Shown here: positions 1,540 through 59,173 of the stretch, in pieces
Position numbering within the stretch: position 1 is the stretch's first letter
Layout of the letters: the number at the start of each line of letters is the position of its first letter
From: Candidatus Versatilivorator sp.
Lineage (GTDB): Bacteria; Acidobacteriota; Terriglobia; Versatilivoradales; Versatilivoraceae
Direction of reading: 5' to 3'
NCBI GenBank assembly: GCA_965262635.1
Contig: OZ253547.1
Coordinates: 3,445,514-3,509,513 of the forward strand
Length of the DNA stretch: 64,000 bases
The notes under the pieces: model-generated
What the model saw: the letters and a program-made list of their open reading frames with translations, nothing else
What the model was told of the DNA's origin: nothing
Database searches by the model: none
Position numbers and translations under genes: made by a program

Positions 1540-1623
1540 CCATTCCCGGCAAAGATCCCGCTGCCGCATTTTGCAAAAGGCTCATCTCTTTCTCTATCTT
1601 GGCGCCATCGGAGAATCTCAAGT

Positions 1624-4040: not shown

Positions 4041-4057
4041 GTTGCTGCCTCCTGCTA

Positions 4058-4845: not shown

Positions 4846-4860
4846 CACCACGTCCTGCCC
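4846..4860 (+). repeat. 15-bp direct repeat of the tRNA-Val 3' end (CGGTCGCGCCCACCA): putative attR of a tRNA-integrated islet
   Basis: Exact match to 244-258; chance expectation is about 1e-4 in this window. Confidence 0.65.
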
Positions 4861-5057
4861 ATTTCCGCCAATTCCCGGCACCTGTTGACAGGCTGGTTCG
4901 AGAACGGTCTCCGCACAGTTGGGAGACTCCCCTCGCAGCCGATTTCCGCACAGCGCCCCGGCCTCGGGCTGCACACACGCCTCCATCTCCAATGGATGAC
5001 AAACCTGAGAACGGCTATAATCTTCTGGTGTAGTCCCAGCCATGGAAGAGCACCACC

Positions 5058-6419: not shown

Positions 6420-6433
6420 GGGCCATAGCATCC

Positions 6434-7555: not shown

Positions 7556-7762
7556 CCTGACTGTGCCCGCGGGTAAGAACCCCGGAGGAGATCACCCGGG
7601 CAATCATTGCAAGCGGGCTGCTGGGCTCGTACGGCCACCGATGGGTCCGGTGCGGCCACCGTGGATCGCCAGCGGGATAGAGTGAGTTCCGGGGGCGGGT
7701 TTTGTTTGGATGCTTCCGGGCAGGTCTGCCCAACCTGAGACACCTGCATCTTATCGCACCCT

Positions 7763-11206: not shown

Positions 11207-11239
11207 TCGCCGACTGAAATCCAGACACAACCTGTCGGG

Positions 11240-40281: not shown

Positions 40282-40754
40282 GGAAAGAATGCCAGCCCCG
40301 GCGGGTCCCGACCGGCTCCCTGGCTCGCCAGATCGCGCCGGCCCCGTTTGGTGTCCGGGAGACCTCAAAAGAGGTGGGGCAAACGATTGAAAATTAAACC
40401 AACTTTCATCGTGTATCCGCCGCCCCTTGAGAGCATGCCGGCTGGGACCCGGCGGAGCGAGAACGCCACCCCAAAATACCACAGTTGCCTGGCGGTGGAT
40501 GGCTTTTTTGGCTCCCACCGGCGGTACCGCAACCCAATGCGGCGCAATCCCCGGGAAGATGTCCTACGGCTACTCCACCGGTCGGTTGTATTGGACTTTA
40601 AGATAAATTTACCCGAGCGCCGCTGTGGTTCTTGCTAAGATACAACCGACTCTCAGACTTGGCGCAGATCAAGGTGGGGCCCAAGGAGCCTGGACTTCGA
40701 AACGGCGATTCCGATGGGCCGTTGCCAAGCCGCTCTCAAGAAAGGCAGACCGAC

Positions 40755-42146
40755 ATGCAATCCTCACGAAGATCGTTTCTGAAAGCCTCCGGGGCCTGCA
40801 CCATGGGCTTCCTGGGGCTTCGCTCTCTAACCGACAACGGATTTTCAACGCCCGGTCCCAGACCGAATGCTCCGGCAGGCTATGGGGAGCTACAGCCGGA
40901 CCCGGAGGGGGTGATCGAACTCCCCGCGGGTTTCACCTATCGGATCCTTTCCAGGGTGGGCCAGATGATGGACGACGGGTACAAGGTCCCCGGTCTGCAT
41001 GACGGCATGGCTGCCTTTCCAGGTCCGTCAGGAACCACGATTCTGGTCCGAAACCATGAACTGAGCCTGGATCATCATTCCATCGGGGCCTTCGGGCCCC
41101 TCAACGAACTGATCAGGGAAAAAGACCGGGCAAAACTGTATGACGCCGGTCGCAGGAGGCCCTGCCTGGGGGGAACTTCCACCCTGGTCTACAACACTCG
41201 TGAGATGCGCCTGGAAAAGCACTTCCTGAGCCTGGGAGGGACGGTTCGCAACTGCGCGGGCGGGCCTACTCCCTGGGGAAGCTGGATCACCTGTGAGGAG
41301 ACGGTGCAGAAGGAGGAGGGACTCTACAGCCGGGATCATGGCTACAACTTCGAAGTGCCCGCTAGCAGCGAAGTCCGGCTGACTTCTGCGGTTCCCTTAA
41401 AAGCCATGGGGCGTTTCGTGCATGAAGCTGTCGCCGTCGATCCCAATTCCGGGATCGTCTATGAAACGGAGGACCGAGGTGATGGGCTACTCTACCGCTT
41501 TATCCCCTATAAGCCCGGAAATATGGCGGCAGGCGGGCGCCTGCAGGTTTTGAGGGTAAAGGATCGGCCCGGTCTGGACACGCGAAACTGGAACGCACGC
41601 CAAGTGCTGCCAGGTCACGCTTTCGAGATCGAATGGGTTGAGATGGACGATGTCGAGTCCCCCAATGATGATCTACGCTATCGAGGATTCGAAGATGGGG
41701 GCGCGGCCCGCTTTGCCCGGGGAGAGGGCATGTGGTGGGACAAGGGATGGATCTATTTTGTCTGCACCAACGGGGGCCTGAACAAAAAGGGGCAGGTGTG
41801 GCGCTACGCCCCCAGCTCCGAGGAGGGGAAACCCGGCGAGAACAGCAGGCCGGGCAAACTGGAACTGTTCATTGAGCCCAACGACGGCAACCTGGTCGAG
41901 AACGCCGACAACCTGACGGTGGCGCCTTGGGGGGACCTGGTCCTTTGTGAGGATGGACCGGAGGAGCAATTCGTGGTCGGGGTCACGCCGCGGGGCAATC
42001 TCTACAAGCTCGGCCGGAACGTGTTCAACAACTCCGAGTTTGCCGGTTCGACCTTTTCTCCCGACGGCAGCACCCTTTTCGTCAACATCCAGAATCCAGG
42101 CATCACGCTGGCCATTACCGGTCCCTGGCTGGAGCAAAAGAGCTAG
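40755..42146 (+). CDS. PhoX-family (DUF839) Tat-secreted phosphatase-like protein
   Basis: Tat signal MQSSRRSFLKASGACTMGFLGL; VRNHEL, NCAGGPTPWGSWITCEE and FSPDGSTLFVNIQ blocks. Confidence 0.75.
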   Translation: MQSSRRSFLKASGACTMGFLGLRSLTDNGFSTPGPRPNAPAGYGELQPDPEGVIELPAGFTYRILSRVGQMMDDGYKVPGLHDGMAAFPGPSGTTILVRNHELSLDHHSIGAFGPLNELIREKDRAKLYDAGRRRPCLGGTSTLVYNTREMRLEKHFLSLGGTVRNCAGGPTPWGSWITCEETVQKEEGLYSRDHGYNFEVPASSEVRLTSAVPLKAMGRFVHEAVAVDPNSGIVYETEDRGDGLLYRFIPYKPGNMAAGGRLQVLRVKDRPGLDTRNWNARQVLPGHAFEIEWVEMDDVESPNDDLRYRGFEDGGAARFARGEGMWWDKGWIYFVCTNGGLNKKGQVWRYAPSSEEGKPGENSRPGKLELFIEPNDGNLVENADNLTVAPWGDLVLCEDGPEEQFVVGVTPRGNLYKLGRNVFNNSEFAGSTFSPDGSTLFVNIQNPGITLAITGPWLEQKS

Positions 42147-42992: not shown

Positions 42993-43199
42993 ATGATTGT
43001 CGATCCCGGCAAGATCCCGAACGTGCGGGCGAAATCCCCGCAGCACGTTCTACGGCTGGTACCGACGATACAAGAACAGGGATGTGACGGGACTGGCCGA
43101 CTGGCATCCGGCGCCGGCGTACCCTGGAACCGGATTCCCGACACGGTTCGTCAGCGCGTCGTCGACCCAGCGGATGAGGTGGGAACGAGAGCGCCATGA
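42993..43199 (+). pseudogene. fragment of an IS481/IS3-type transposase N-terminus (frameshifted)
   Basis: Two overlapping frames read ...RSTFYGWYRRYKNRDVTGLAD... and ...NRIPDTVRQRVVD..., resembling the HTH/OrfA region of IS481-like transposases. No intact ORF. Confidence 0.45.
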
Positions 43200-46100
43200 C
43201 CGTTCACTCTAAGGGCCGCGAGCTCTTCATCGTCGACAACAGTGTCTCCGGCTGGACCGGGCTCCGGTACTTGGAGGAGTGGTCCAGCATCGCGAAGGCG
43301 TTCGACATCGCGACCGGATACTTCGAGATCGGCGCTCTGCTCACCCTAGAAGGCAAGTGGCAGGAGCTCGACAAGATCCGGATCCTGATGGGGGCGGAGA
43401 CTACCCATCGGACTCGGAAGGCCATTCTCGAAGCGGTCCGGGCGCAAGCGCTCGACAGGCTCGATGAAAGCATGGAGGAGGACAAAGAGCCGAACCCCTT
43501 CCTGCACGGAGTCCATGCGATCCTCGAAGCGCTCCGCTCCGGGCAGATCGAATGCCGTGTCTACGACAAGGACAAATTCCACGCCAAGGCCTACATCACC
43601 CACGCAAGGCTCGAGGTCGTGGGCGCCCAGGGGCTGGTGGGCTCCAGCAACTTCACGCGCCCGGGTCTCACGAAGAACATCGAACTGAACGTCCAGATCC
43701 AGAGTGCGCGCGAGGTCGCGCAGCTCCAGGAGTGGTTCGAGACGCATTGGAACGAAGCGAGGGAGGTCACCGAGGCCGTCATTGAGACGATCTCGCGCCA
43801 TACGCACCTGTATTCGCCGTTCGACGTCTACGCGAAGGCCCTGCAGCAGTTCTTCCGGGGGCACGATCTGAGCGCGACTGAGTGGGACGAGACACGGTCG
43901 CGCATGTTCCCGCACCTCGATCGCTATCAGAAGGAGGCGTACTGGGCGCTCTTGAAGATCGCCCGGCAGCACGGCGGTGCGTTCCTCTGTGATGGCGTGG
44001 GTCTTGGGAAGACCTTCGTCGGTCTGATGCTGATCGAGCGGCTCATCCTTCACGAGGGCAAGCGTGTCGCGCTGTTCGCACCGAAGGCGACCAAGGAGGG
44101 CGTATGGGAGCCTCACCTGCGTCGGTGGCTTCCGCACATCGGCGGCGTCGGCGGTGGCGCGGACTTCAGCAACCTGGCCGTCTTCAGCCACACTGACCTG
44201 GGACGCAAGGGCGACTACCCGGAGCGTTTCCAGCGCATCGCGGAACTGGCCGACATCGTCGTCATCGACGAAGCGCACCACTTCCGCAATCCGGGTCGCC
44301 GGGGTGACCCGGACAGGGGAATCGAACCGTCGCGCTACTACCGCCTGTTCGAGTTGCTCGACAACGCGGAACGCCCCAAGACAGTGATCATGCTGACCGC
44401 CACCCCCATCAACAACCGCCTGAGCGACTTCCGTCACATGACCGAGCTCTTCACCCGTTGCGACGAGGCCTACTTCGCGCGCACGATCGGCGTGAACAAC
44501 CTGCGGGCGCACTTCAACCAGATGGAAAAGACGCTTCGCAGCCGTGTGGGGCAGGACGAGGCGGATGCCGCGGAGCACATGACCGAAGCCCAGCAGATCC
44601 TCTTCACCGACGCATTCTTCCGCCAGCTCGTCGTCCAGCGGAGCCGCGATTACGCCCGCGAGAGCCAGATTCGGGAGTACGGCAAAGCAGCCGCCTTTCC
44701 CGAGCGGAGGGACCCTCAGGTAGCGGCGTACTCGATCCGCAAGACCTACGGGGGGATGCTCAAGCTGATCGAGAAGGCCTTCGCGAAGCAGAGCCCCCTC
44801 TTCACGCTCGCGATGTACTACCCCCTGCATTGGTACAGGGGGCCGGACAAGGACATCGACCCGTTCGAGGAGAACCGCCAGAGACAGGTGGTCGGCCTCA
44901 TCCGGACCAACTTCCTCAAGCGCTTCGAGAGCTCCGTCGCCGCCTTCGAACTCTCCTGCGACCGCCTCCTCCAGAAACTGCTCGCCTTCCTTGAGGTTCA
45001 CAGCGAGAGCGACGCCGAGAAGAAGCGCCTCGAGCGCTGGAAGGCGCAGAACGCCGACGTCCTGGGCTACGCGGTCCAGCGCCAGCGCGAGCTCTGGGGC
45101 GAAGAAGGCAAGGAAGCGGACGACGAAGACATCGTCCCCCAGGAAATGCTCGACGCGGTCGAGCGCCTCGAGCGGGCCGAGTACGACGTAGAGGAGATGA
45201 TAGCCGAGACCTTCCTCGACCTCGACCAGATCGTGCAGTTCCTGGACGAGGCCCGGAAGTTCGAGCCGAAGCACGACGATAAGCTCAAGAAGCTCATCCG
45301 CCTACTCAATTCAAAGGCGCTGGCCGACCAGAAGATCCTGATCTTCACAGAGTTCGCCGACACGGCCCGCTACCTCAAGCGTCACCTGGACGAGGCCGGT
45401 ATCGAGGGTGTCGAGCAGGTGGACAGTGCCACGAAGAAGAACCGTTCAGACGTCATCCAGCGCTTCGCGCCCTACTACAACGGCCTCTCGTCCCCGGAAC
45501 TCGCCGAGCAGGGCCGCGAGGAGATCCGCGTCCTGATCTCCACCGATGTCCTCTCCGAGGGTCTCAACCTTCAGGACGCCTCGCGGATGACCAACTATGA
45601 CATCCACTGGAACCCGGTCCGCCTCATGCAGCGCATCGGCCGGGTGGACCGGCGCATGAATCCCGCAATCGAGAAGCGGCTCGTCGCCGACCATCCCGAG
45701 GCGGCCGCCTCGCGCGACACGGTCTGGTTCTGGAACTTTCTCCCGCCCGAGGAGCTGAACGAGATCCTCTCGCTCTACAGGAAGGTCACGCAGAAGGCGC
45801 TTCTGATCTCCAAGACCCTCGGGATCGAGGGCAAGAAGCTCCTCACCCCGGAGGACGATTACGAGGCGCTGAAGGAGTTCCACCACGCCTACGAGGGCAC
45901 GCGCACGGCCATGGAGGACATGCACCTCGAGTACCAGGCGCTGCTCCAAGCCGACCCGGAGCTGGAGGCGCGCCTCGCTCGCTTCCCCGGTGCGATCTTC
46001 AGCGGCCGCAAGCGCCCGGCAAGGGGCGTACGCGGTGTCTTCTTCTGCTACGCGCTCCCCGCCCTCGACAAGGAGAAGAACGAGTTCACCGAGGAGGCCG

Positions 46101-46345
46101 GCACCACCCGCTGGTACCTCTACGACCTCGACCGCGAGACCATCATCGAGGAGCCGGGCGAGATCGTCGCGAGCGTCCGCTCGAAGCCCGAGACGCCCCG
46201 GCACTGCACCACGGAGGAGAAGACGCTCCTCGACATCCGCAAGCGGATCGACAAGCACATCAAGAACAGTTACCTGAAGCGCGTGGACGCACCCGTCGGC
46301 GTCAAGCCGCGGCTGCACAGCTGGATGGAACTGAACGAGGGCTGA
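43196..46345 (+). CDS. PLD-family nuclease domain fused to SNF2-family helicase/translocase
   Basis: 1049 aa. N-terminus has [10 protein letters not shown]...GSSNFT (HxK...GSxN PLD motif). SNF2 motifs: GLGKTF (Walker A), [11 protein letters not shown] (DEAH box), [17 protein letters not shown]...QRIGRVDR (helicase C). Confidence 0.85.
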
Positions 46346-46349
46346 ACCG

Positions 46350-49300
46350 ATGCCGACCGACCACCGCGAACGCCTCGCCCGCATCCGCCGCTTCGACCAA
46401 CTCGTGGCATACCTGCGCGACGAGCTGGGCTGGCCGATCGACTCGGACGACTTTGAGGAGTTGACCTTCGAGTACACCCCGGAGGAGCTCGGGATCGACG
46501 CGAAGAACGCGGCCAAGATCCAGGAGATCAAGCGCCTGCGCCCGCTCGTGCCGGGCCAGCCCTGGGGCATCTTCTTCGTCAAGTTCGAGCCGAAACGGCT
46601 GCCCGTGGTGGCGCTGCGCCGCATCCTCAGCCAGGTGGCGCTCAAAAAGCGCGCCACGGCCAACAAGTCCGAGCGCCAGGCTTGGGCCGCCGACGACCTG
46701 CTCTTCGTCTCCAACTACGGTGAGGGCGAGGAGCGACGCATCGCCTTCGCGCACTTCTCGAAGCCCCGGGACAGCCACGACCTGCCCACCCTCAAGGTAC
46801 TCGGCTGGGACAACCTCGACACGCCGCTCCACCTCGACGCCGTCGCCCGCGAGCTGAGCGCGCACCTCGCCTGGCCCGACGACGAGGACGACCCCGACGC
46901 CTGGCGCGAGCGCTGGCGTGCTGCCTTTACACTGCGCCACCGCGAGGTCATCACGACCTCGAAGGAGCTCTCCGAGCGCCTGGCCGAGCTGGCCCGCTCG
47001 ATCCGCGACCGTATCCAGACGGCGCTCGCCATCGAGACCCAGGCCGGCCCGCTCACCCATCTCATGAAGGCGTTCCAGACCGCACTCGTCCACGACCTGG
47101 ACGAGGCCGGCTTCGCCGACATGTATGCCCAGACCATCGCCTACGGCCTGCTCTCGGCCCGCATCACCGACCCCACGCGGCGAACGGCCGACGACCTCGT
47201 CGCCCACGTGCGGACGAACCCATTCCTAAAGGAGCTGTTGGAGACCTTCCGCCACGTGGGTGGGCGCCGCGGCAAGGCCGGCGGTCCAGGCATCGACTTC
47301 GACGAGCTGGGCGTCTCCGAGGTGGTGGAGATGCTCGACCAGGCCAACATGGAGGCGGTGGTCCACGACTTCGGCGACCGGAACCCCCAGGAAGACCCGG
47401 TCATTCACTTCTACGAGCACTTCCTTGCCGCCTACGACAAGAAGCAGAAGGTGAGCCGGGGCGTCTTTTACACCCCGCGCCCGGTGGTCTCCTACATCGT
47501 GCGCTCGGTGGACCAGCTCTTGCGTAGCGAGTTCGGCCTCACCGACGGCCTCGCTGACAACACCACCTGGGGCGAGATGGCGAAGCGCCACAAGGAACTG
47601 AAGATCCCGGAAGGCACCTCGCCGGCGCAGGCCTTCGTCCAGATCCTCGACCCGGCCACCGGCACGGGCACCTTCCTCGTCGAGGTGATCGACCTCATCC
47701 ACAAGACGATGGTCGAGGAGTGGAAAGCCCAGGGCCACGGCGACAAAAAGATCGATGCGCTCTGGAACGACTACGTCCCCAAGCACCTCCTGCCGCGCCT
47801 GCACGGCTACGAGTTGCTAATGGCGCCTTACGCCATCGCGCACCTCAAGATCGGCCTCAAGCTCTTCGAGACCGGCTACCGGTTCGAGAGCGACGAGCGA
47901 GCGCAGGTGTACCTGACGAATGCGCTCGAGCCGCCGGTCGACGGGCAGCTCACCCTCGACTTCATGCCTGCGCTGGCGCATGAGGCTGAAGCGGTCAACA
48001 AGATCAAACGGAAGCAGCGGTTCACGGTGGTGATTGGGAATCCGCCCTACTCAGGCCTTTCCTCGAACATGGGTCCCTGGATCGACGGTCTTCTCAAGGG
48101 CCGCCTGCCAGATGGAAAGGCAACCTCCAGCTACTACCACGTAAACGGCAAGCCTCTCGGTGAGCGCAAGGTGTGGCTTCAGGACGACTACGTGAAGTTC
48201 ATTCGCCTCTCGCAGTGGCTCCTCGACGGCACGGGTGCGGGCGTTCACGGCTACATCACCAACCACGGCTACCTCGACAACCCCACGTTTCGAGGAATGC
48301 GCTGGTCGCTCATGGAGTCCTTCCGCCGGATCCGTGTGCTCGACCTTCACGGGAACCTCAAGAAGAAGGAGGCTCCGCCGGGGGGCAGCCGCGATGTCAA
48401 CGTGTTCGACATCCAGCAGGGCGTGGCTATCGGGCTTTTCACAAAGTCTGCCGCCGCCAGATCTGTCCACCACGCAGATCTGTGGGGCGAACGGGAAAGC
48501 AAGTACAGATGGCTACTGGAGCATGGGTCCTTAACCACCGAATGGGCGCAACTGGAACCAGCTCCACCGTTCTATCTGTTCGAGCCCTTCGACGACGCAG
48601 GAACGGACGCCTACTACGGCTGGCCTGCAATCAGCGAGGTGATGGCCGTCAACGTGACCGGCATCGTCACGGCGCGCGATGATTTCGTCATCGATTTCGA
48701 CCGGGAGGCCCTCCGAGGCCGGATCGCCGACCTGCGCTCGAAGTCACTGTCCGATGATGCAATCCGGAAGAAATACTTCGTCGGGAAGGGTTCGAAGAAG
48801 TATCCGCCCGGGGACTCGCGCGGATGGAAGCTGCCTGCGGCCCGGCGGAAGATCCGTGAAGATGATCAGTGGGATGAGCGGTACGCGCCTGTGCTGTATC
48901 GCCCGTTAGACGTCCGGGAGATGTACTACGTGCCGTGGATGGTGGACTGGCCTCGGACCGAAGCCATGCCACACATGCTCGCGGGGGAGAATGTCGCCCT
49001 GATGGCATGTAGGCAAGCAATCGGTAACGGCTGGAAACACTTACTGGCCACGCGATTGATTACCGATGACTCGATGGTTTCCAATCGAACACGCGAGCGA
49101 GGTTATCTTTTCCCCGTTTACCTCTATCCGGGGGTTGGAAGTGCAGATACATCACTGTTCAGCCGCTGGGCCGAGGGCAAGGACGGCCGCACGCCAAATC
49201 TGGACTCGGGGTTCGTCGAGCAGATTGCAGCCGCCACCGAACTGCGATTCGTCAGCGACGGCCGCGGCGATCTCTGGAAGACCTTCGGCCCCGAGGACGT

Positions 49301-50369
49301 CTTCGCCTACATCTACATGGTGTTCCACAGCCCCGGCTACCGCGGCCGCTACGAGGCCCATCTCAAGCTTGACTTCCCCCGCGTGCCGGTGCCCGGAAGT
49401 GTCGACCTCGTCCGAAAGCTGGCGGAGGCCGGCCATGACCTGCTGGCCCTCCACCTGCTCGAATCCCCGAAGCTCGGTAAGCCCATCACCGCCTACACCG
49501 GCCCCAGGAACCCAGAAGTCGGCCGTGTCGGCTGGTCGGACGGCACGGTCTGGCTCGACGCCGGCAAGACCAACGCCCGCGCGGGCCACCGTGCGACGAA
49601 ACGCGGCACCATCGGGTTCCAAGGCATACCCGAGGAAGTCTGGGACTTCCAAATCGGCGGCTACCAAGTTTGCCACAAGTGGCTCAAGGATCGGAAGGGA
49701 CGCACGCTCTCCGACGAGGACATCGCCCACTACCAGAAAATCGTCGTCGCCCTGAACGAGACCATCCGCGTCATGGCCGAAATTGACGAGGTCATCGAAG
49801 CCCACGGCGGCTGGCCCGCCGCATTCCATACGGCGTCGGAGGCGGATGCCGTATCGGAGTGGACGGCGAAGGTGGTGGCGTTCCGGCCACGCACGGTCGA
49901 GCCCGCGCCCGAGGACCGCTACGTCACCTGCGTGCCGCTCGTCGCGCTAAGAGCAGCAGCCGGCGACTTTGGCGATCCGCAGCATATCGAAGACGACGAT
50001 TTCGAGTGGGTCGCTGTCCAGTCCCGCCATCGTCTGCGCAAGGGCATGTTCGTCGCCCAGGTCGTCGGCAAGTCCATGGAACCCGCAGTCGCCGACGGCG
50101 CTTGGTGCCTATTTCGCGCTCCGGTCGAGGGCACACGCCAGAGCAAGACCGTTCTCGTCCAGCTCCGCGACGCCACCGACCCGGAGACCGGTCAGCGCTA
50201 CACGGTCAAGCGCTACAAGAGCCTAAAGGCGACAGAGGGCGACTCCTGGCGCCACGAGAAGATCACCCTTGAGCCCGTCAACCCGGACTTCGAGCCGATA
50301 GTGCTCACCGGTGTGGACGAAGGCGAGCTGCAGGTAATCGCGGAACTAGTCGACGTGTTGGGGGGCTGA
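46350..50369 (+). CDS. gamma-class N6-adenine DNA methyltransferase (BREX PglX / type IIG-like giant MTase) with C-terminal LexA-type S24 peptidase domain
   Basis: 1339 aa; FYTPRPVV (motif X), [11 protein letters not shown] (motif I), VIGNPPYSG (motif IV). The last ~149 aa (from nt 49920) align with the LexA C-terminal domain: [21 protein letters not shown] (Ser) and TVKRYK (Lys). Confidence 0.85.
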
Positions 50370-50372
50370 GGT

Positions 50373-53300
50373 ATGGTTCCGGAACAGCTCGAACCGCACC
50401 TGGAGCTGCTCCGCGAGGAGTACGTCCTCGTTCAGGCCTGGAAGAAGACCGCGTCCTACATCCGCTACCACAACTGGTTCTCCGACACGCTCGCCCTCGA
50501 CCGCGCGGCCGTGAACCTGCCGGCGTTTATCGGCGAAATCCGTGAACGTCTGCGGTCTTCGGAGAGATGGCAGAACGATCCTCTGCGAATCGTGCCAGCA
50601 CCCAAGAGCCAGCGCTGGAGAGCGCGTGAAGGCGTGTGGGAGCCCGTCGAGAAAAGGGCCGCCTCAGTACGACTTCGACCGCTCGCACACGTCAGTCTGG
50701 CCGACCAGGTGGTAGCGACGGCGCTGATGCTTTGTCTCGCCGACCGTGTCGAAACGCTGCAGGGGGATCCGCGGCGGCCGCTACGTGATCAAGAGTCGCG
50801 ACGGCAGGTGGTCTCCTACGGGAACCGACTGTTCTGCGACGCGATGGGAGGCGAACTGCGCCATCGGTGGGGATCCGCCAAGCTCTACCGTGCCTACTAC
50901 CAGGACTACCGCGCGTTCCTCTCCCGTCCGGAAGTTGCGGCCGAGTCGATTCTCGCAGCCCACGGAAAGCGGGTGTACGTCCTCCATGCGGACCTTCGAC
51001 AATTCTATGACCGCGTGCGCCCAGATCTGCTTGCCGAAGCGATCGACCGGGTCCGCCGCGACGGCGATGATCCGGCGTTCTTCTCTTTGGTGGCGTCCGT
51101 GCTCGATTGGGGTTGGCATCAGCGTGACGAAAGAGACGTCCGAATCTACGCAGAGCAGGCGGAGCTGGAGGACTTCACGCGGGTGGCACTGCCACAGGGA
51201 CTCGTCGCCTCCGGCTTCTTCGCGAACGTCGTGCTTCTTTCGTTCGACGAGGCGCTGCGCGTGGCGATCGGGACCGAGATCGCCCCCGGGATCCTGCTGG
51301 CGGATTCGTGCCGATACGTCGACGACTTACGGATCCTGGTTGCGGTTGCCCCGAACACGGATGGCTCCTCGAATGACCTTGAGAAGACCGTCGCAAGATG
51401 GCTAAATCAGGTACTGGAAGAGAATGCGACCGGCCTAGCCCTGGCCCCCGAGAAGACCCAGGTCGCAGCGCTCGGAGGCGACGAACGACCGCTGGTGCGG
51501 CAGAGCGCGAAGATGAACCGCATCCAGTCGGCGGTGTCGGGGGGATTCGACGGGCTCGGGGGCGAGGAGATCCTCGATGCCATCCAGGGCCTGATGCGCG
51601 CGCAGGAAGCCCTGAGCGTGGGCGACGACAGCGGCTGGCGATATTCCCCGGTCCCGGATGTGCGGGACGAGACGGTCGCCAGATTCGGCGCTGCCCGATA
51701 TCGAACCACGTTCCGTTCCATCAGGCCACTGCTCCAAGACAACGACACACCGGACGAGTCTGAGGTTGGAAGAGGCGATACCCCGCCCGGCGGGCGACTG
51801 CGCGTGGCGCGTACGCGGCGCGAGCTGGACGAGGATGCGAGGGCGTTTGCGCTCGGACTGCTTCAACGGTGGATCGACGACCCCTCGAACGTTCGATTGC
51901 TCCGGATCGGCCTCGATCTCTGGCCGGATGTCGAGTTGTTGCGGGAAGTTCTTTCACTGCTCCGCCCATTCACGGAAACGGGAGGTCGGCGAAAAGCGCC
52001 GAGGCGAGTCGCCTGGTACTGCCTCGCTGAAGTCTTGCGCGCGGGAGCCACGGAGACGGGCCTCGTGGCAGACACCGAATCGCTTCCATCAGAGATCGAC
52101 CTTGAATCCTACCGAGAGGAGCTTGGCAGGGAGGCCGCTCGCCTAGTGGGTTTGCCCGGGCCGACGATTCCCTGGTATCTCCGACAGCAGGCGCTGTTGT
52201 TTCTAGCAGCATGCGATCCCGCCGGAGCGCCCGTTACCCGCACGGGAACCGGATCGGAGACCCGGCACTACCGGGAGCTGATTCGATTTCTGCGCGGTGA
52301 AGGAGAACGCCTCAGGAGTTCGGATTTCGCGACCCTCGCGGTTCTCGCCAGACGTGCGTTCGTAGATCGAGTGCGGGCCGTTGAGTTGGCGCGGCCCGGC
52401 CTCAATCCGTCGCGGAAGCGGCAGCTTGCTCAGAGGGACCCGTCGTTTCTTCTTGAGCTCATCGACACCGAGACGGACGCTCTCCTCGTCGACGACCTTC
52501 CGGCGCGCATCCGTGAGGACTTCTGCCGGGCTTCGGAGAGTCCTGACGGAGACCACGACACGCTGGCCATGGCGGTCCTGAACACGCACCCGAGCGGTTC
52601 TCTTCGCAACGAGCTCTCTCTTCTGCGCTTCGCGATGGCTTTTCTCAGCCAGTGGGAGCAGCAGGAGTTTCCGCCCGAGGTGATCACGCCAGGGCACGTC
52701 ACGCTGATGCTCGGCGAGGACCAGGGGATCGCTGACGTAGAAAGCCTACGGATCCTGGGGAGTCGGGCCGACGCATCGGGCTCCCTGTACGAGGTGGCCG
52801 CGTGGTGCCAAGCCGGTGATCGGTGGCGCTTCCAGCTCGGTTTCCTGTTGCGGTTCATCTTGTCGGGGCAGCCGGACTTCACGCGCCCTGTCTGCAGGAC
52901 GGGCTGGAGAGAGACTGAGTCTTGCTATCGGCCTGCCGAGAGCCACTGGTACCAGCGGTTGTACGGCCTTTACAACGGGCAGCCGGCCTTCGGAGACGAC
53001 TGGCTTCCGATCACGGATTGGGTAGAAGGATTCCTCCTGGCCCTCCTGCGCTGGCCAGGATGCCTTGCTCCGGAAGGGTTCAGTTGGGTCGAGCAGGGCA
53101 TCGAAGAGGCGAGGACGCAGATTGGCCAGAGGATCGCTGATCTCGAGCAGCGCCGCGGTAGCGCTACCCGTGCACTGATCCTGCCGCTGCTGGCCAAACG
53201 ACCGACTGCGACGAACACGAAGAGGCCGTTACGTGCCTGCGTGGTACAGACAGCGATCCCGGCGGCCGACGACTTCCAGCACACAGATTTGGCACTCAAC

Positions 53301-53537
53301 GATTCCGCAATTCGGCGAAGACACCGCAATCACCTGTCGGCAGCGCTCGCGGCCGTGGAACGCATGTTGGCGTTGCGGGAGACGCACAAGGGGAGCGTAG
53401 GGCGGCTCGATTGGCTGATTCTGCCCGAGCTTGCCGTCCATCCGAATGACGTTCGTACTCATCTGGTCCCTTTCGCACGGGCTCACAGGGCAATGATTCT
53501 CACCGGGCTGACCTACGAAGAGATTCTAGTGTACTGA
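50373..53537 (+). CDS. reverse transcriptase domain protein, 5' part of an RT-nitrilase fusion (DRT1/UG1-like), truncated by IS630 insertion
   Basis: RT motifs: VLHADLRQFYDRVRPDLL (motif 2), ALPQGLVASGFFANVVLLSFD (motif 4), CRYVDDLRIL (YxDD) and LAPEKTQV (motif 6). C-terminal LRACVVQTAIP...WLILPELA begins a CN-hydrolase domain. The stop codon is supplied by the IS terminus. Confidence 0.85.
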   Translation: MVPEQLEPHLELLREEYVLVQAWKKTASYIRYHNWFSDTLALDRAAVNLPAFIGEIRERLRSSERWQNDPLRIVPAPKSQRWRAREGVWEPVEKRAASVRLRPLAHVSLADQVVATALMLCLADRVETLQGDPRRPLRDQESRRQVVSYGNRLFCDAMGGELRHRWGSAKLYRAYYQDYRAFLSRPEVAAESILAAHGKRVYVLHADLRQFYDRVRPDLLAEAIDRVRRDGDDPAFFSLVASVLDWGWHQRDERDVRIYAEQAELEDFTRVALPQGLVASGFFANVVLLSFDEALRVAIGTEIAPGILLADSCRYVDDLRILVAVAPNTDGSSNDLEKTVARWLNQVLEENATGLALAPEKTQVAALGGDERPLVRQSAKMNRIQSAVSGGFDGLGGEEILDAIQGLMRAQEALSVGDDSGWRYSPVPDVRDETVARFGAARYRTTFRSIRPLLQDNDTPDESEVGRGDTPPGGRLRVARTRRELDEDARAFALGLLQRWIDDPSNVRLLRIGLDLWPDVELLREVLSLLRPFTETGGRRKAPRRVAWYCLAEVLRAGATETGLVADTESLPSEIDLESYREELGREAARLVGLPGPTIPWYLRQQALLFLAACDPAGAPVTRTGTGSETRHYRELIRFLRGEGERLRSSDFATLAVLARRAFVDRVRAVELARPGLNPSRKRQLAQRDPSFLLELIDTETDALLVDDLPARIREDFCRASESPDGDHDTLAMAVLNTHPSGSLRNELSLLRFAMAFLSQWEQQEFPPEVITPGHVTLMLGEDQGIADVESLRILGSRADASGSLYEVAAWCQAGDRWRFQLGFLLRFILSGQPDFTRPVCRTGWRETESCYRPAESHWYQRLYGLYNGQPAFGDDWLPITDWVEGFLLALLRWPGCLAPEGFSWVEQGIEEARTQIGQRIADLEQRRGSATRALILPLLAKRPTATNTKRPLRACVVQTAIPAADDFQHTDLALNDSAIRRRHRNHLSAALAAVERMLALRETHKGSVGRLDWLILPELAVHPNDVRTHLVPFARAHRAMILTGLTYEEILVY

Positions 53538-54690
53538 CATCTAATTAATATTTAATAATGATGATTCGATGCTATAGTATGGGGCATGGCCCGTCCGATT
53601 ACAGTCCTCAAGCTCACAGCCGGTGAACGTCGAGAGTTACAGCGCCGGGTTAGTTCCAGCACGAGTTCGAAGCGCGATAGCTTGCGCGCCGAGATTGTCC
53701 TGCTCCGGAGCGAAGGGGTCAAGGTCGAGGAAGTGGCTGAACGATTGAACGTCAGCTTGCCGTGCGTCAGCAAGTGGTCGAGGCGCTTCCAGCACGCCGG
53801 CCTGGACGGCTTGAACGACAAAGCGGGACGGGGACGCAAACCGTGGGTGCCCATGGAGACAGTCGAACAAATCATCGTGAAAGTGACCCAGCCGCCACCG
53901 GGACGGACGCGATGGAGTTTGCGCAGCATGGCGAAGGAAGTCGGCGTCTCGCGCCACACGGTCCACACGATCTGGAAGCGTAACGACTTGAAGCCTCATC
54001 GCACGCGTACATTCAAGCTGTCGAAAGATCCGAAGTTCGAGCAGAAATTCTGGGATGTCATCGGTCTCTACCTCCATCCTCCCGAGAAAGCGCTCGTGCT
54101 CTGCTGTGACGAGAAAACCCAGTGTCAGGCTCTGGAACGCAGTCAGCCGGGATTGCCCTTAGGAATCGGCCACATTCGCACCCGAACTCATGACTACAAG
54201 CGACACGGCACCATCACCTTGTTTGCGGCTCTCAACTACCTGGACGGCAAGCTGATCTCCCGGACTGAACAGCGGCACACCCATGTGGAGTGGTTGCGTT
54301 TCCTCAAGCAGATCGAACGGGAAACACCCAAGTCGCTGGCCATTCACCTCATTGTCGACAACTACAGTACTCATAAGCATGAACGTGTCCGCCGTTGGGT
54401 CGACCGTCATCCACGCATCCACTACCACTTCACGCCGACCGGGAGCTCCTGGCTGAATCTTGTCGAACGCTTCTTCGCCGATCTCACCAGCGATGTGATT
54501 CGCGACGGCAGCTTTCGCAGCGTCCCCGAACTGGTTCGCGCCATCGAATCCTATCTGGCCGACCGCAACGCGGATCCTCAACGCTACACATGGCATACAA
54601 AAGGCGAAGCAATCCTCGCCAAGATTCAACGAGCCAAAGAGGCTCTGGCCAACGTTAATTAATTAAACCCATTTCAATGTCAGGACACTA
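53529..54690 (+). mobile_element. IS630-family insertion sequence (1162 bp) with imperfect terminal inverted repeats GTGTACTGACAT / ATGTCAGGACAC and TA target duplication (53527-28 / 54689-90)
   Basis: TIRs match 11/12 positions. Excising 53529-54690 restores one continuous reading frame across the nitrilase domain. Confidence 0.85.
53586..54662 (+). CDS. IS630-family (Tc1/mariner-like) DDE transposase
   Basis: 358 aa; N-terminal HTH, DDE triad region ...DNYSTHKHE... and IS630-typical C-terminus. Confidence 0.9.
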   Translation: MARPITVLKLTAGERRELQRRVSSSTSSKRDSLRAEIVLLRSEGVKVEEVAERLNVSLPCVSKWSRRFQHAGLDGLNDKAGRGRKPWVPMETVEQIIVKVTQPPPGRTRWSLRSMAKEVGVSRHTVHTIWKRNDLKPHRTRTFKLSKDPKFEQKFWDVIGLYLHPPEKALVLCCDEKTQCQALERSQPGLPLGIGHIRTRTHDYKRHGTITLFAALNYLDGKLISRTEQRHTHVEWLRFLKQIERETPKSLAIHLIVDNYSTHKHERVRRWVDRHPRIHYHFTPTGSSWLNLVERFFADLTSDVIRDGSFRSVPELVRAIESYLADRNADPQRYTWHTKGEAILAKIQRAKEALANVN

Positions 54691-55287
54691 GCGGGGCAAC
54701 CGCTCGTCAACTCAGCCCTGTGGGTCATTCCGGAGTGGTCGGACGCCTACGGGCTGCAGATCAAGACTCGCCGTCAGGGGAAGGCCCATCTCGCCCCGAA
54801 TGAGCAAGCGTTCAACGGTGGTGGGGCGCACGTTCTTCAGGGATTCCGGCCCTGCCAGTGGTTGATCGGCTATCCGTGGTCGAGTGCGGACGGTACCCAG
54901 CCCGTCTGGCTCACGGCAGCGGTGTGCTACGACGCGACGGACCTCGGCTTGGCTGCGGATCTCAGGGATGTGTCGGATGTCTTGGCGATCCCGGCGCTCA
55001 ACAAGGACGTGAAGACGTTCGACCAAATGGCGTTGGCGCTGCACTACCATATGTTCCAGCTCGTGGTCGTCGCCAATAACGGCCAGTACGGCGGGAGCAA
55101 CGCATACTGGCCCCGGAGCAATGCTCACATCAGGCAGGTCTTCCACACCCACGGGCAGCCGCAGGCTTCGATCGCGTTCCTCGAAATCGACGACATCGGC
55201 GCGTTCCTGAAGCGCCACGACGTGTCGGGAGCCAACGCCGACAACTGGAAGCATCCCCCCGCAGGTCTGAACATAGCATCGCCGTGA
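54691..55287 (+). pseudogene. 3' remnant of the RT-nitrilase gene: C-terminal half of the CN-hydrolase (nitrilase) domain
   Basis: In frame with 50373..53528 once the IS is removed. Contains catalytic-Lys block RRQGKAHLAP and catalytic-Cys block AAVCYDATD. Confidence 0.75.
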
Positions 55288-55647
55288 GGTTGGTAGTGAC
55301 AGGCTTCGCCGCCGGTGCCCGCCGCCTACCGGCCCACCACGTCACCATCCGCGTTCCGTGGCACCACAGGGGCTGGGCCGGAACGGTGTGTGCGCGGCCG
55401 CTGGACAACTCGAGCTGCCTCATCCTGCCCCGCATCGACGCGGGGGGATATGCCGCTTAATGGGGGCGGCTTCGTGCAGGGACTTGATGGAGTATCGCCG
55501 GTCTGGCTGGTAGGGTTTTGCAACACCCTTGAGGCTCACGGACTATGCCCGACATCCTGCGCCGGCGCAATGAACCATGCGGGTTAACTTATCGACACGA
55601 CTTGAAACACCCCCCTCCCCGCGCGCTGAGAGGGGGATAGCGGAAAA

Positions 55648-55675
55648 GCAAGCGTGTCTCCCTCTCCACGCTTGC
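55648..55675 (+). terminator. candidate stem-loop (GCAAGCGTG-N10-CACGCTTGC) downstream of the RT-nitrilase gene
   Basis: Perfect 9-bp inverted repeat; no obvious U-tract. Confidence 0.25.
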
Positions 55676-56230
55676 CCGTCCACACCGTTGAAAGCCTGAG
55701 AGGCATTGGCCCGACCCACCACACCTGGTAGGCATTTGCCTTCTCCCGGCCTTGCAAATCCGTTTGATCCAAGCCGACATTTGGGCCGAATCCAACCTTA
55801 GGCATTGCCCAAATACCTCGCTTGCCATAAAATTTCCACCAAAAGGGCCCTGCACGGCAGCCTATGAAATTGACCCCTATGCGGGCCAAAGGGCAATTGT
55901 CAGAGCATCCTTTTTCCCAGTAACCTCAGTCTGTCGAACCCACACGCCCTAGGTGGACACAGCCAGTAGGCTATCCCGCTCAGGCGACTGTGTAAAAAGG
56001 AGTCTAACATAAAGCTACCGCATGTCAAGCGTTTTTGTACCGTATATGCAAAATAAACCTGACCCCTGAGCGATGAGTTCTAGCTACAATTCTGAACTCG
56101 GCTGAAGCCGCCATGGTGGACGGGAGCCTGACAATTCTGCGAGGCTCTCGTAGCGCTCCCGTGGAGTCCGTCCTGAAATATCTCCTGCGGGCCTGGGAAG
56201 AAATACTTTGGGACGAAAACCCCGAGCCGG

Positions 56231-59173
56231 TTGAACGACGGGATGAATCCAAAAGTGTCCCGGGTTTCTGAGCCACTCCCGACCCGGGTGTTGCCAGGAC
56301 GCCCTCCCCCATCCCAACCAGTTGCCAAGACATCATCCATGGCCTCACCCGTACCAGGCAATTCCGTTCCAACCCAATGGGTAAGCTCCACCCTCGACCG
56401 GCTCCCCCTGGAGGCCAAGCTCGGCCAACTCATCATGCCGGCTATGCGTGGGATTCACCTGAATGAAGCCAGTGCCGAATACAAGCAACTGAAGCATCAG
56501 ACACAGCAACTCGGCGTGGGCGGTTTCATTCTATTCGAGGGAGATATTTACGAGTCAGCCGTCCTCATCCACCGACTGCAGTCCCAGGCGCCGATTCCCT
56601 TGCTGATTGGATCCGACTTCGAGCGCGGAGCCGCCTTCCGCATTCGCCACACCCTCCCCCTGCCCTGGAACATGGCCGTGGGAGCCACCCGATCGGAGCA
56701 ATGGGCCTGCTGGCAGGGACGGGTCACCGCCCAGGAAGCCCGAAGCCTGGGGGTCAACTGGGTGTTTGCGCCGGTGGTGGATGTCAACAACAATCCGGCC
56801 AACCCGGTCATCAACATTCGATCCTACGGAGAGGACCCTCAAACAGTGGGCCGTCTGGGTGCGGCATTTGTCACGGGAGCCCAGCAGGCCGGGGTGCTGG
56901 CAACGGCCAAGCATTTTCCGGGTCACGGCGATACCGAGGTGGATTCCCATCTGTCTTTGCCGGTGATTTCCGTGCGGCGCCCACGGTTGGAACGGATCGA
57001 GTGGGTTCCCTATCGGGAGGTGATCGGGGCCGGTGTCATGGCGATCATGACGGCTCATGTAGCCATCCCGGCCTTGGAGAAAGACCCCACCCGACCGGCC
57101 TCGCTTTCGGCCGCGGTACTGGAACAGGCCTTGAGGAACGAACTGGGGTTTCGGGGCTTGATCGTAACGGACTCCATGAAGATGCGGGGACTGACCCGAG
57201 GATACTGGAGCGGCGAAGCGGCGGTTCAGGCTATTCAGGCCGGTGTCGACGTGCTCCTGGACCCACCCGATGCCCAGGTCATCTTTGGCGCACTGCTGGA
57301 GGCGGTGAAGAATGGCCGCCTTTCCGAGGCCCGCGTGGACCGATCGGTAGAGCGGGTCCTGCAAGCCAAGGCCTGGCTGGGCCTGAGCCGCAGGAAGCGG
57401 ATCGACTTCCGGCGCCTGGCTCGGACAATGAATGCTCCCGCAATCCACGCTCAAGCCCAACATTTGGCCGATGCTTCCGTCACTCTGGTGAGAGACGCCG
57501 TGTCTCGGGTTCCGGTGGATGTCCGTGGAATCCGCTCGGCCCATTTGATTGTCGTTTCCGCCAGCCCATCGCCGGGGGCTGCCGCCGAACTGGAAGGTCA
57601 ACTGAGGACTCGACTCGATGCTGTGACCGTGGATCGCCTCTCCTCTGAAGCTGCTCCCTCCCTGCTGAACCAGGCCAGATCCAGGGCCAGGAAGGCGGAT
57701 CTCTGTCTGGTGGCCCTGTTTGTTCCGCTTGTGACCGGGACCGGCCGCCTCGGACTGCCAACTCCTCTGGCGGATTGGTTGAAGGGGCTGGTCCGGGCCA
57801 ATCCCTCCGCGCTTTTGATTTCCCTGGGCGACCCCTACCGGATTCAGCAGCTTTCGTTCTTCCCAACCTACCTGTGCACCTACAGCCACGTAGCCACTTC
57901 CCAGAGGGCGGCAGTCAAGGCGCTCTTTGGAGAAATTCCGCTGGCAGGCGAGCTGCCGGTGTCCATTCCGGGCGTGGCCGCACGGGCTACCGGTCTCAAG
58001 CGGGAAGCGTTGCCGATGGTCCTGGGAAAACCCCGGCTGGTCGGAGCGAACCAGGCCCGACAGGGCATCCTGGTCCTTCGAAAACAGCTCCAGCAGATTG
58101 TCCGGCAATTCATCGCCCTTCAAGCCTTTCCGGGAGCCTCCTTGGCCGTGGGCTACCAGGACAACCTGCTGGTGCGTCAAGGCTACGGCAGGTTGGATTA
58201 CGGATCGACCAGTCCTTCGGCAAAGCCGCATACCATTTACGACCTGGCATCGCTCACCAAGGTGGTGTGCACCACCACCTTGGTCATGCAGGCCTGCGAG
58301 CGGGGGGATATAGACCTGGAAGACCCCCTCGGCCGCTACTTTCCGGAGTTCCGGGTGGGCGGAAAACACGAGGTCACACTCAAGCATCTGTTGACCCATT
58401 CCTCGGGACTTCCGGCACACTTTCCCCTTTACGCACACACCAGCGGAAAGGAACACATTCTTCGACGGATTCTGGAAATTCCCCTGGAGCACCGGCCGGG
58501 AAGTCGCAGCCTCTACAGCGACCTGGGCTTCATTCTGCTGGGGGGCGTCCTGGAAAGGGTTTGTGGACAGAGCCTCGACAACCTGGCTCGCGAGCGGATC
58601 TTCCAACCCCTGGGAATGCGTCGCACCGGCTTTCAACCCCCTTCCGCCTGGAGGCCCCGCATCGCTCCCACGGAAATCGACCCCTGGAGAAAACGCCTGC
58701 TCCGGGGTGAAGTTCATGATGAAAACGCCTATGCGATGGGAGGAGTGGCTCCCCACGCCGGACTGTTCGGCACAGCAACAGACCTGGGAGTCTTTTGTCA
58801 GACTCTCCTGAACGGCGGCGTCTACAATCATCGCCGAATCGTGAAGCAGAGCACGTTGGAAGCTTTCACCCGACGTCAGGCCCAGCCATCCGGCAGCACT
58901 CGAGCCCTCGGTTGGGACACCCCTTCGCCCAAGGGCTCCTCGGGTGACAAGCTGTCGAGGCAGTCCTATGGTCATACGGGATTTACCGGAACCTCCCTTT
59001 GGATCGATCCCCAGCGCCGGCTCTTCATCGTTTTCCTGACCAATCGGGTGCACCCCTCCCGGGAGAACGGCGCCATCCAGTCAGCCCGGCGTCAGGTGGC
59101 CGATACCGTGGCGGAGGCTGTGGATAAAATGGGGATGATTCAGACAGATACCGGACAGGGTGACGGGACATGA
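56231..59173 (+). CDS. bifunctional glycoside hydrolase family 3 (NagZ-like beta-N-acetylhexosaminidase) / beta-lactamase-family serine hydrolase
   Basis: 980 aa; GH3 N-terminal domain (KHFPGHGDT, catalytic D in TDSM); C-terminal class-C beta-lactamase/PBP motifs ASLTK (SxxK), YSD. The true start may be downstream of 56231. Confidence 0.85.
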   Translation: MNDGMNPKVSRVSEPLPTRVLPGRPPPSQPVAKTSSMASPVPGNSVPTQWVSSTLDRLPLEAKLGQLIMPAMRGIHLNEASAEYKQLKHQTQQLGVGGFILFEGDIYESAVLIHRLQSQAPIPLLIGSDFERGAAFRIRHTLPLPWNMAVGATRSEQWACWQGRVTAQEARSLGVNWVFAPVVDVNNNPANPVINIRSYGEDPQTVGRLGAAFVTGAQQAGVLATAKHFPGHGDTEVDSHLSLPVISVRRPRLERIEWVPYREVIGAGVMAIMTAHVAIPALEKDPTRPASLSAAVLEQALRNELGFRGLIVTDSMKMRGLTRGYWSGEAAVQAIQAGVDVLLDPPDAQVIFGALLEAVKNGRLSEARVDRSVERVLQAKAWLGLSRRKRIDFRRLARTMNAPAIHAQAQHLADASVTLVRDAVSRVPVDVRGIRSAHLIVVSASPSPGAAAELEGQLRTRLDAVTVDRLSSEAAPSLLNQARSRARKADLCLVALFVPLVTGTGRLGLPTPLADWLKGLVRANPSALLISLGDPYRIQQLSFFPTYLCTYSHVATSQRAAVKALFGEIPLAGELPVSIPGVAARATGLKREALPMVLGKPRLVGANQARQGILVLRKQLQQIVRQFIALQAFPGASLAVGYQDNLLVRQGYGRLDYGSTSPSAKPHTIYDLASLTKVVCTTTLVMQACERGDIDLEDPLGRYFPEFRVGGKHEVTLKHLLTHSSGLPAHFPLYAHTSGKEHILRRILEIPLEHRPGSRSLYSDLGFILLGGVLERVCGQSLDNLARERIFQPLGMRRTGFQPPSAWRPRIAPTEIDPWRKRLLRGEVHDENAYAMGGVAPHAGLFGTATDLGVFCQTLLNGGVYNHRRIVKQSTLEAFTRRQAQPSGSTRALGWDTPSPKGSSGDKLSRQSYGHTGFTGTSLWIDPQRRLFIVFLTNRVHPSRENGAIQSARRQVADTVAEAVDKMGMIQTDTGQGDGT

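Follow-up and report, generated by a model that had tools for sequence, protein, structure and literature searches.

The question raised by this locus is whether three very large genes, packed head to tail on one strand, form one composite defence system or an assembly of separable modules. They lie in a 64,000-nucleotide (nt) stretch of the genome of Candidatus Versatilivorator sp. (assembly GCA_965262635.1, contig OZ253547.1), referred to below as the window, whose numbering is used throughout, and they encode a PLD-SNF2 protein (g1), an adenine methyltransferase with a LexA-like tail (g2), and a reverse transcriptase-nitrilase of the DRT1 type (g3). A sequence-only reading of the window had taken the three genes for one composite system. 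Our analysis favors a different organization: the locus is probably a layered defence operon, in which a split Type ISP-like restriction-modification pair, g1-g2, is followed by second-line defence cargo that has decayed in this genome. The locus represents a variant within kinds of system already known and does not define a category of its own; the window copy is partly dead.

Open reading frames (ORFs) were called in the window and scanned with Pfam, PADLOC, and NCBIfam profiles. The gap between g1 and g2 was 4 nt and that between g2 and g3 was 3 nt; the ORF called for g3 (50373–53537, 1054 residues) was shorter than the restored gene described below. This spacing confirmed the tight array of the earlier reading, in which a single operon was claimed; the genes are presumably co-transcribed. 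DNA of 62–66% G+C content may contain long ORFs by chance, and a 642-residue antisense ORF overlaps g1; g1, g2, and g3 are nevertheless real genes, because their profile matches lie far beyond chance. The domain calls made earlier from the letters alone (PLD-SNF2, adenine methyltransferase, S24/LexA, reverse transcriptase-nitrilase) were borne out by Pfam, PADLOC, and hhalign. The features of the array are the following:

42993..43195, + strand: remnant of the N-terminal helix-turn-helix of a transposase, with a frameshift (HTH_32 E 1.8e-4, HTH_29 3.6e-3, both below Pfam thresholds)
43196..46345, + strand: g1, single-HKD PLD nuclease and SNF2-type ATPase, 1049 residues, proposed 'Res' motor-nuclease subunit (Pfam, PADLOC)
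46350..50369, + strand: g2, gamma-class N6-adenine methyltransferase with a target-recognition domain and a LexA-like tail, 1339 residues, proposed 'Mod/S' subunit (Pfam, PDB relatives)
49950..50348, + strand: predicted C-terminal autoproteolysis domain of g2, of the LexA-like S24 type (Pfam Peptidase_S24, hhalign)
50373..53528, + strand: 5' part of g3, codons 1–1052, with the DRT1/UG1 reverse transcriptase, the central region, and the start of the nitrilase (Drt1a, RVT_1)
53529..54688, + strand: IS630-family insertion sequence with a transposase gene at 53586–54662 (DDE_3, inverted ends, TA duplication, empty site in a sister contig)
54691..55287, + strand: 3' part of g3, codons 1053–1250, with the remaining nitrilase domain (Drt1a, RTasNitrilase)
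55296..55460, + strand: PDC-S68 relic, the first ~50 codons and then a stop (tblastn)

Protein g1 comprised a PLDc_2 domain (residues 36–185, 3.5e-12), a ResIII/SNF2-rel_dom region (residues 241–415), and a Helicase_C domain (residues 696–819, 2.6e-18), and its best PADLOC model was 'HKD+Snf2' (1.3e-58). The nuclease was of the PLDc_2/RE_NgoFVII HKD type. Residues H129, K131, N152 (GSSN), K272 of Walker A, D358/E359 (DEAH), and R816 and R819 of motif VI were invariant in 66 of 66 homologues, and conservation was even along the length of the protein (0.79 among homologues). The 90%-identity cluster of g1 counted 414 members, with ~1,570 cluster representatives at E 1e-30 or better. A scan of viral contigs with g1 gave no close relatives; thus, the module is not phage-borne at that level of similarity. 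Distant PLD-SNF2 relatives on plasmids (25–29% identity) were also paired with methyltransferases: in L161 (Lactococcus lactis plasmid pUL021B, 6920–12986; L numbers denote sampled loci and contigs) a helicase-related protein is followed by a DUF4391 gene and then by the methyltransferase, and in L162 (Deinococcus radiophilus pRadio5, 730–10153) the methyltransferase and helicase genes flank an embedded GmrSD-like gene (DUF262).

The core of g2 consisted of an N6_Mtase/Eco57I/MmeI_Mtase region (residues 349–666) followed by Type_ISP_C (residues 763–1143, 1.2e-77), the C-terminal specificity domain of Type ISP enzymes. Motifs DPATGTG (434–440) and NPPY (564–567) were invariant in 36 of 36 homologues. 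The best PADLOC model was REase_MTase_IIG (2e-202); among solved structures in the PDB the best relative was DrdV (7lo5, 1e-30), followed by LlaBIII (5e-26) and LlaGI (6e-24). With a family profile of the N-terminal region, residues 276–397 aligned with the segment that just precedes the methyltransferase in LlaGI and LlaBIII. Because this segment, the methyltransferase, and the specificity domain all align, the C-terminal portion of a Type ISP enzyme is matched colinearly by g2 from residue ~276 to ~1143, and the order within g1, nuclease and then superfamily 2 (SF2) motor, is that of the N-terminal half of such an enzyme. The pair as a whole therefore repeats the order of functions of LlaGI and LlaBIII: nuclease, SF2 motor, pre-methyltransferase segment, gamma-class N6-adenine methyltransferase, specificity domain. 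At the same time, Type ISP enzymes are single polypeptides, whereas here a stop codon separated g1 from g2 in every homologous locus; the nuclease of g1 is of the PLD/HKD type and coupled to an SNF2-like motor, in place of the Mrr-type PD-(D/E)xK nuclease at the Type ISP N-terminus; and g2 has an additional N-terminal domain of 275 residues and, in about one third of its members, the S24 tail.

In the homologue alignment, the methyltransferase part of g2 was conserved at ~0.8 versus ~0.3 for the hypervariable residues 721–1000. Hypervariability of this kind, beside a conserved methyltransferase and an evenly conserved g1, is typical of restriction-modification systems whose specificity has diversified. 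The earlier assignment of g2 to the PglX/type IIG size class held for the gamma-class N6-adenine methyltransferase but not for the likeness to PglX: matches to PglX and DrmMI were weak (E 1e-3 to 1e-4; DrmMI 8e-4, PglX 4e-4 or weaker), and g2 is better described as a Type ISP/IIL-like methyltransferase with a target-recognition domain. Plasmid proteins annotated at NCBI as 'type ISP restriction/modification enzyme' were 35–47% identical to g2; the two inspected were solitary genes encoding ~1,060–1,100 residues. A search for contigs encoding the exact g2 protein returned none.

The C-terminus of g2 (residues 1201–1333) matched Peptidase_S24 at 5e-5, which is at the Pfam threshold. When the tail family was aligned by hhalign with Escherichia coli LexA (sequence entered by hand), the probability was 94.9% with E 4e-8. 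The alignment placed VPLV..AAA|G on the cleavage site A84-G85, S1242 of GKSME(P) on S119, and K1287 of TVKR(Y) on K156. The predicted scissile bond is thus Ala1204-Gly1205 (49959–49964), with Ser1242 at 50073–50075 and Lys1287 at 50208–50210. The Ser and Lys were invariant in all S24-bearing homologues, and Ala-Gly was replaced by Ala-Ser in a few. Other searches of this region gave less: a single-sequence phmmer search against the PDB found nothing relevant, a 12-sequence profile gave weak LexA matches (E 0.03–1), and the AlphaFold2 model was unusable (pLDDT 36). The tail shares with LexA, UmuD, and lambda CI the Ser-Lys dyad and an Ala-Gly site after a VPL(V/I) strand; unlike in those proteins, the S24 domain ends a methyltransferase of 1200 residues (elsewhere a DruE-like helicase or an Eco57I-type methyltransferase) and not a small helix-turn-helix DNA-binding domain. 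The g2 proteins lacking the tail either end at ~1110–1170 residues or bear another domain of ~150 residues. One such extension, with two similar repeats (...RIxEELxxAxRxAVRRGI...) and no Pfam match, was seen in g2 of L106 (13161–17177), L109, L132, L137, and L034; g2 of L011 carries yet another C-terminal domain in place of S24. In the searched literature on S24-methyltransferase fusions, PDC-S68, and DUF4391, no description of this architecture was found.

The identification of g3 as a DRT1/UG1 protein of ~1250 residues proved correct. It matched PADLOC Drt1a at 1.4e-294 and RVT_1 at 2.7e-8 (residues 191–365), and the fragment at 54862–55287 matched the Drt1a C-terminus at 3.5e-59 and RTasNitrilase at 1e-37. 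The YVDD motif (residues 315–318) was invariant in 71 of 71 relatives. The nitrilase triad of the restored protein is formed by Glu1019, Lys1083 (54781–54783), and Cys1131 (54925–54927); Glu and Lys were invariant in all 71 homologues and Cys in 70 of them. The gene is a bona fide member of DRT type 1, lying here between an S24-tailed methyltransferase and a gene for a RecD-like helicase and, in contrast to the described systems, inactivated by an insertion.

That insertion, already recognized as an IS630 element inside gene 3, is flanked by a duplicated TA target (53527-8 / 54689-90) and encodes an intact DDE_3 transposase (53586–54662, 5.5e-21); its inverted ends, GTGTMCTGACAT, are unique to it within the window. 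Excision of the element in silico yielded an ORF of 1250 residues, within the 1200–1300 expected for DRT type 1. The same intact DRT1 with the exact empty site was present in contig L163, which belongs to a near-identical strain (98.4–100% nucleotide identity over 14.8 kb, same flanks); thus, the insertion happened recently and at the strain level. Because the element lies between the catalytic Glu1019 and Lys1083/Cys1131, the nitrilase effector domain has been destroyed in the window strain, so that an intact, expressible DRT1 gene is present in the sister contig and absent from the window.

DRT1 has been described as a single gene or, in 18–19% of cases, as paired with the membrane protein Drt1b (Gao 2020; Mestre 2022, PMC9226505; Neville 2026, PMC13275509). 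It defends as a single gene that needs no partner; its nitrilase filament is kept dormant by protein-primed, template-free single-stranded DNA adducts and is released by phage factors, among them a Dda helicase (PMC13275509). In four Rhodobacterales genomes, an SbcB-like exonuclease I gene (RNase_T + Exonuc_X-T_C) was located directly upstream of DRT1, which starts at ~10001 (L050 8386–9783, L051 8413–9837, L076 8552–9940, and L079 9276–9785). Exonuclease I is a 3'-5' single-stranded DNA exonuclease, here adjoining the enzyme that makes single-stranded DNA adducts; SbcB essentiality has been tied to another UG reverse transcriptase, UG17 (UG/Abi paper).

A fourth gene had been overlooked. Eight nt past the DRT1 stop codon, at 55296–55445, tblastn with the PDC-S68 protein of L084 as a query revealed 50 codons 68% identical to the PDC-S68 N-terminus (E 2e-17), with a stop codon shortly after; the window therefore holds three long genes, as proposed, and a truncated relic of PDC-S68. 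PDC-S68 is a protein of ~1270 residues with a RecD-like SF1B helicase core, which matches RecD2 (3e-23) and T4 Dda (3e-8). A full-length copy followed DRT1 in 11 sampled loci, including eight of the ten triplet loci described below, and relics followed it in four others besides the window. The conserved array is four genes long: g1-g2-DRT1-PDC-S68.

The recurrence of this array was analyzed in 80 DRT1 loci, one genome per species, with neighbors checked by tblastn; the sampling is biased toward close relatives and short contigs. Genes g1, g2, and DRT1 were found in the same order, with gaps of 6–9 nt, in ten species-level genomes, which supports the expectation that gene order would be conserved elsewhere. 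The hosts belong to Binatia, Acidobacteriota, Vicinamibacterales, Alpha- and Gammaproteobacteria, Woeseiaceae, and Acidobacteriia. The triplet was also present on three further contigs (L082, L163, and L166), and g2-DRT1 in two loci (L032 and L058). Counting relics, g2 was the only recurrent upstream neighbor of DRT1 (16 loci) and PDC-S68 the only recurrent downstream one (13 loci). In a neighbor-joining tree, the linked and relic-bearing DRT1 proteins were scattered within one large subclade (57–90% identity to the window); the basal clades, which are mostly alphaproteobacterial, contained none. The array is transferred horizontally as a unit, because identities of 89–92% were found across phyla. 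No mobility genes common to the array flanks were detected within 5 kb across genomes, and the flanking genes differed from genome to genome.

Decay was frequent. Intact four-gene arrays were found in L010, L011, L019, L026, and L034, and an intact three-gene array in L163. IS630-family elements interrupt g2 of L002 (~7507–8735) and L166 (4121–5069), and L031 carries DDE-transposase insertions in both g2 and DRT1 (~7379–8715, ~10789–12108). An internal deletion affected g2 of L006, a g1 relic is fused next to a frameshifted DRT1 in L053, and g2 tail relics with broken frames stand upstream of DRT1 in L003, L028, and L063. Such repeated independent inactivation fits what costly, self-toxic immunity genes would show.

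The modularity of the array became evident from a metagenome scan with g1, which gave 80 loci, of which 32 non-redundant ones show the 3' end of g2. In nearly all loci reaching far enough, g1 was followed by g2 after ~8 nt, and DRT1 came after g2 in only one of the 32. Otherwise the third position held defence-type genes or ordinary housekeeping genes, in many cases with an overlap of 4 nt. The former included PDC-S68 (L084/L136, L087, L106, and L147; relics in L090 and L109), an Avs2-like STAND protein (L109), UDG with a PDC-S37-like helicase (L093), a BrxU/HEC-05-like protein (L122), GmrSD-like proteins (L132 and L137), and a PDC-M33A-like protein (L115). All pairwise combinations, g1-g2 with DRT1, g1-g2 with S68, and DRT1 with S68, were found, and ~80% of the sampled DRT1 relatives lacked g1-g2. 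Hence, the claim that three genes form one composite system did not stand: g1-g2 is a widespread, self-contained module, DRT1 works alone, and the triplet is not an obligate three-gene system.

Genes were also found between g1 and g2: a YhcG/DUF1016 PD-(D/E)xK nuclease gene was embedded there in five loci (L085 3801–4919, L095 4321–5439, L108 13146–14312, L143 2689–3819, and L147 13149–14300), and a KilA-N gene in one (L104 4009–4845). DRT1 was observed beside other DNA-modification systems as well. Its neighbor in L015 (7156–9948) and L021 (7026–9950) is a BrxC-like protein (DUF499), and an SNF2-like helicase lies farther upstream; in L003 (13991–15628) a Type I HsdM adjoins it. DRT1 may generally travel as cargo of DNA-modification systems.

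This pattern matches the published one of defence genes embedded in DNA-modification systems. Payne et al. reported such genes within Hma, BREX, DISARM, and Type I restriction-modification loci under the term 'guilt by embedding' (bioRxiv 10.1101/2024.01.29.577857). Here, too, a DNA-modification host carries variable operonic cargo, and PDC-S68, PDC-S37, PDC-M33A, and the HEC-05/BrxU-like protein come from the same catalogue. However, the PLD-SNF2 plus Type ISP-like methyltransferase host was not among the systems analyzed there, the cargo is here mostly appended after the last core gene and not nested, and that study did not describe DRT1 as a passenger that recurs and co-diverges.

Other known systems share components with the array. 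DISARM class 1 and the DUF499-centred BR systems (PMC12839542) also combine a PLD/HKD nuclease, an SNF2-type helicase, and an N6-adenine methyltransferase, and the Type-2 BR effector is likewise an HKD-SNF2 fusion (PMC12839542). Unlike in DISARM, the PLD domain and the helicase share one polypeptide here, in place of a separate DrmC, and g1 matched DrmD over the helicase C-lobe only (2e-31). We failed to find DrmA/DrmB (DUF1998/MZB) matches in the array, as the sequence-only reading had noted, or PglZ or BrxC/DUF499 ORFs in the operon and its flanks. Membership in DISARM, BREX, and BR systems is excluded because their core genes are missing. In the YeeA-YeeB-YeeC group, to which Morgan et al. 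2009 drew attention, the DEAD-type helicase and the GIY-YIG nuclease are separate proteins, whereas here PLD is fused to the SNF2 ATPase; no biochemical characterization of the Yee group or of the PLD-SNF2 group was found in the searched literature. PADLOC and NCBIfam contain no model for the g1-g2 pair or for the three-gene combination, in line with the sequence-only reading.

The layered operon may be expected to work as follows. The hypervariable specificity domain of g2 would recognize an asymmetric DNA site, and N6-adenine methylation would protect host DNA. At an unmodified site, g2 would recruit g1 into a physical complex with restriction activity: the SNF2 motor would translocate on double-stranded DNA and the PLD domain would cut, a dimer being needed for one active site since each subunit has a single HKD motif. 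Under SOS conditions (RecA and single-stranded DNA), the LexA-like tail of g2 might cleave itself and detach a dimerization module, most likely as a safety valve that relaxes restriction upon chromosome damage. The position after g2 would serve as a co-transcribed, start/stop-coupled slot for second-line abortive-infection genes, here DRT1 and then PDC-S68, and DRT1 would act in the published way, as a dormant nitrilase filament freed by phage factors including Dda. In the window strain the cargo is decayed, with DRT1 split and PDC-S68 cut to 50 codons, and only g1-g2 looks intact.

Several observations weigh against this reading and toward an integrated system, in which g1, S24-tailed g2, DRT1, and PDC-S68 would be interdependent; for example, RecA-stimulated tail cleavage would signal failed or excessive restriction, and S68 would strip single-stranded DNA adducts and so license the nitrilase. 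Gene order was constant and spacing was 3–10 nt in all copies, the association held down to 57% DRT1 identity, and g2 relics stand upstream of DRT1 in other loci. Co-divergence, measured as the Spearman correlation of pairwise identities between genes across loci, was 0.79 for g1 versus DRT1 and 0.77 for g2 versus DRT1 (12 loci each), as strong as for g1 versus g2 (0.68, 42 loci), and 0.58 for DRT1 versus S68 (12 loci). The S24 tail was enriched in DRT1-linked g2 (12 of 14 versus 10 of 31 others; Fisher p = 0.0012, not corrected for phylogeny), and it recurs on two other head proteins directly upstream of DRT1: a DruE/YprA-like helicase with an MrfA Zn-binding domain ends in a 63% identical tail (L040, 126–4136), and an Eco57I-type methyltransferase ends in a 43% identical one (L018, 1–2718). 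Stand-alone S24 proteins were also considered as DRT1 partner genes and rejected, the short ones being mostly gene-call fragments of decayed arrays. The integrated system is attractive because DRT1 activation needs a Dda-class helicase and a gene for such a helicase, with the RecD2 and Dda matches given above, recurs as the sole downstream neighbor of DRT1. Nevertheless, each component also occurs without the others; tailed g2 precedes S68, S37-like, and M33A-like cargo in loci without DRT1; two intact four-gene arrays (L011 and L034) have no S24 tail; identities of g1 and S68 correlate weakly (0.32, 13 loci); characterized DRT1 needs no partner; and the Fisher test ignores shared ancestry. 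We therefore consider interdependence of the four genes a possible but rather doubtful explanation. A specific form of it, with lower odds still, is one damage-sensing circuit, in which the LexA-like tail, DRT1, and the RecD/Dda-class PDC-S68 are attached to DNA-surveillance 'head' proteins: upon triggering by RecA-single-stranded DNA, the head would cleave itself and so signal that restriction had failed or run out of control, and the host-encoded Dda-like helicase would release DRT1 from its DNA-locked filament.

A further alternative is that g2 alone is a complete Type IIL/IIG enzyme of the MmeI/DrdV kind, with g1 as an accessory or an independent Type IV-like nuclease-helicase. The methyltransferase-specificity core of g2 is homologous to that of Type IIL enzymes, as the PADLOC model and the DrdV match indicate; moreover, the first 275 residues of g2 have an invariant E80-x-K82 at the positions of the MmeI catalytic residues E80 and K82, and the low-confidence model of this N-terminal region gave low-Z matches to several restriction-endonuclease folds, DrdV, HsdR, and BpuSI among them. 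At the position of the third, essential MmeI residue, D70, there is however an invariant Gln (Q70), and Pfam and family profile searches gave no sequence-level match of this region to any nuclease domain. The region may be a degenerate nuclease-like or docking domain. Type IIL enzymes are solitary single genes, whereas members of the g2 clade lie immediately behind g1 in practically all loci that are long enough. According to Morgan et al. 2009 (PMC2731913), MmeI-like methyltransferases without the PD-ExK motif are nuclease-inactive and flanked by helicases, and were predicted to form multi-subunit ATP-dependent systems with single-strand modification. A self-sufficient g2 is thus very unlikely. 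Least probable of all, and essentially excluded, is that unrelated defence genes came to lie side by side in a defence island by chance, without their arrangement being selected. Defence genes do cluster generally, the flanks differ between genomes, and many copies are decaying; but order, strand, and few-nt spacing recur in at least ten species-level genomes of different phyla, with co-diverging genes and DRT1 identities of 57–90%, and the sole recurrent neighbors of DRT1 among the 80 loci are g2 and S68. The layered operon, a split restriction-modification pair with second-line cargo, accordingly remains our preferred interpretation.

The surroundings of the array are unremarkable. Upstream lies a gene for a Tat-signal PhoX phosphatase (40632–42146) and downstream one for a 980-residue fusion of glycoside hydrolase family 3 with a beta-lactamase-fold domain (56231–59173), and between them only g1, g2, g3, the insertion sequence, and the relics were found. 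Because both flanking genes are ordinary metabolic genes, the array is an isolated insertion and not a piece of a larger defence island. The fragment in front of g1, previously called IS481-like, is a transposase relic whose profile matches are subthreshold, and an insertion sequence family was not assignable; uncorrected ORFs over 42993–43195 matched no profile, and the matches appeared only after frameshift-corrected translation. The ~770 nt after the PDC-S68 relic (55461–56230) contain no convincing ORF and no Rfam match and are probably a deletion scar marking the right end of the island. An Rfam scan of 40–58 kb of the window found no RNA family and therefore no noncoding RNA of the DRT type, and a promoter and terminator scan gave nothing informative within the operon.

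If the layered reading is true, the pair represents an uncharacterized restriction-modification architecture, PLD-SNF2 plus a Type ISP-like methyltransferase, common in environmental bacteria, which current defence finders would split into a 'Type IIG R-M' and an unassigned helicase. In E. coli Type I systems, ClpXP performs restriction relief during DNA damage. A self-cleaving tail of the LexA type would equip a methyltransferase, and other defence proteins that target DNA, with an SOS switch of their own for relaxing self-targeting immunity. The order of S24 tail, DRT1, and Dda-class helicase would bear on which activators besides phage Dda can act on DRT1, a question of the 2026 DRT1 structure paper. 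Should the less likely damage-sensing circuit hold, restriction and abortive infection would be a wired two-stage system and not mere neighbors.

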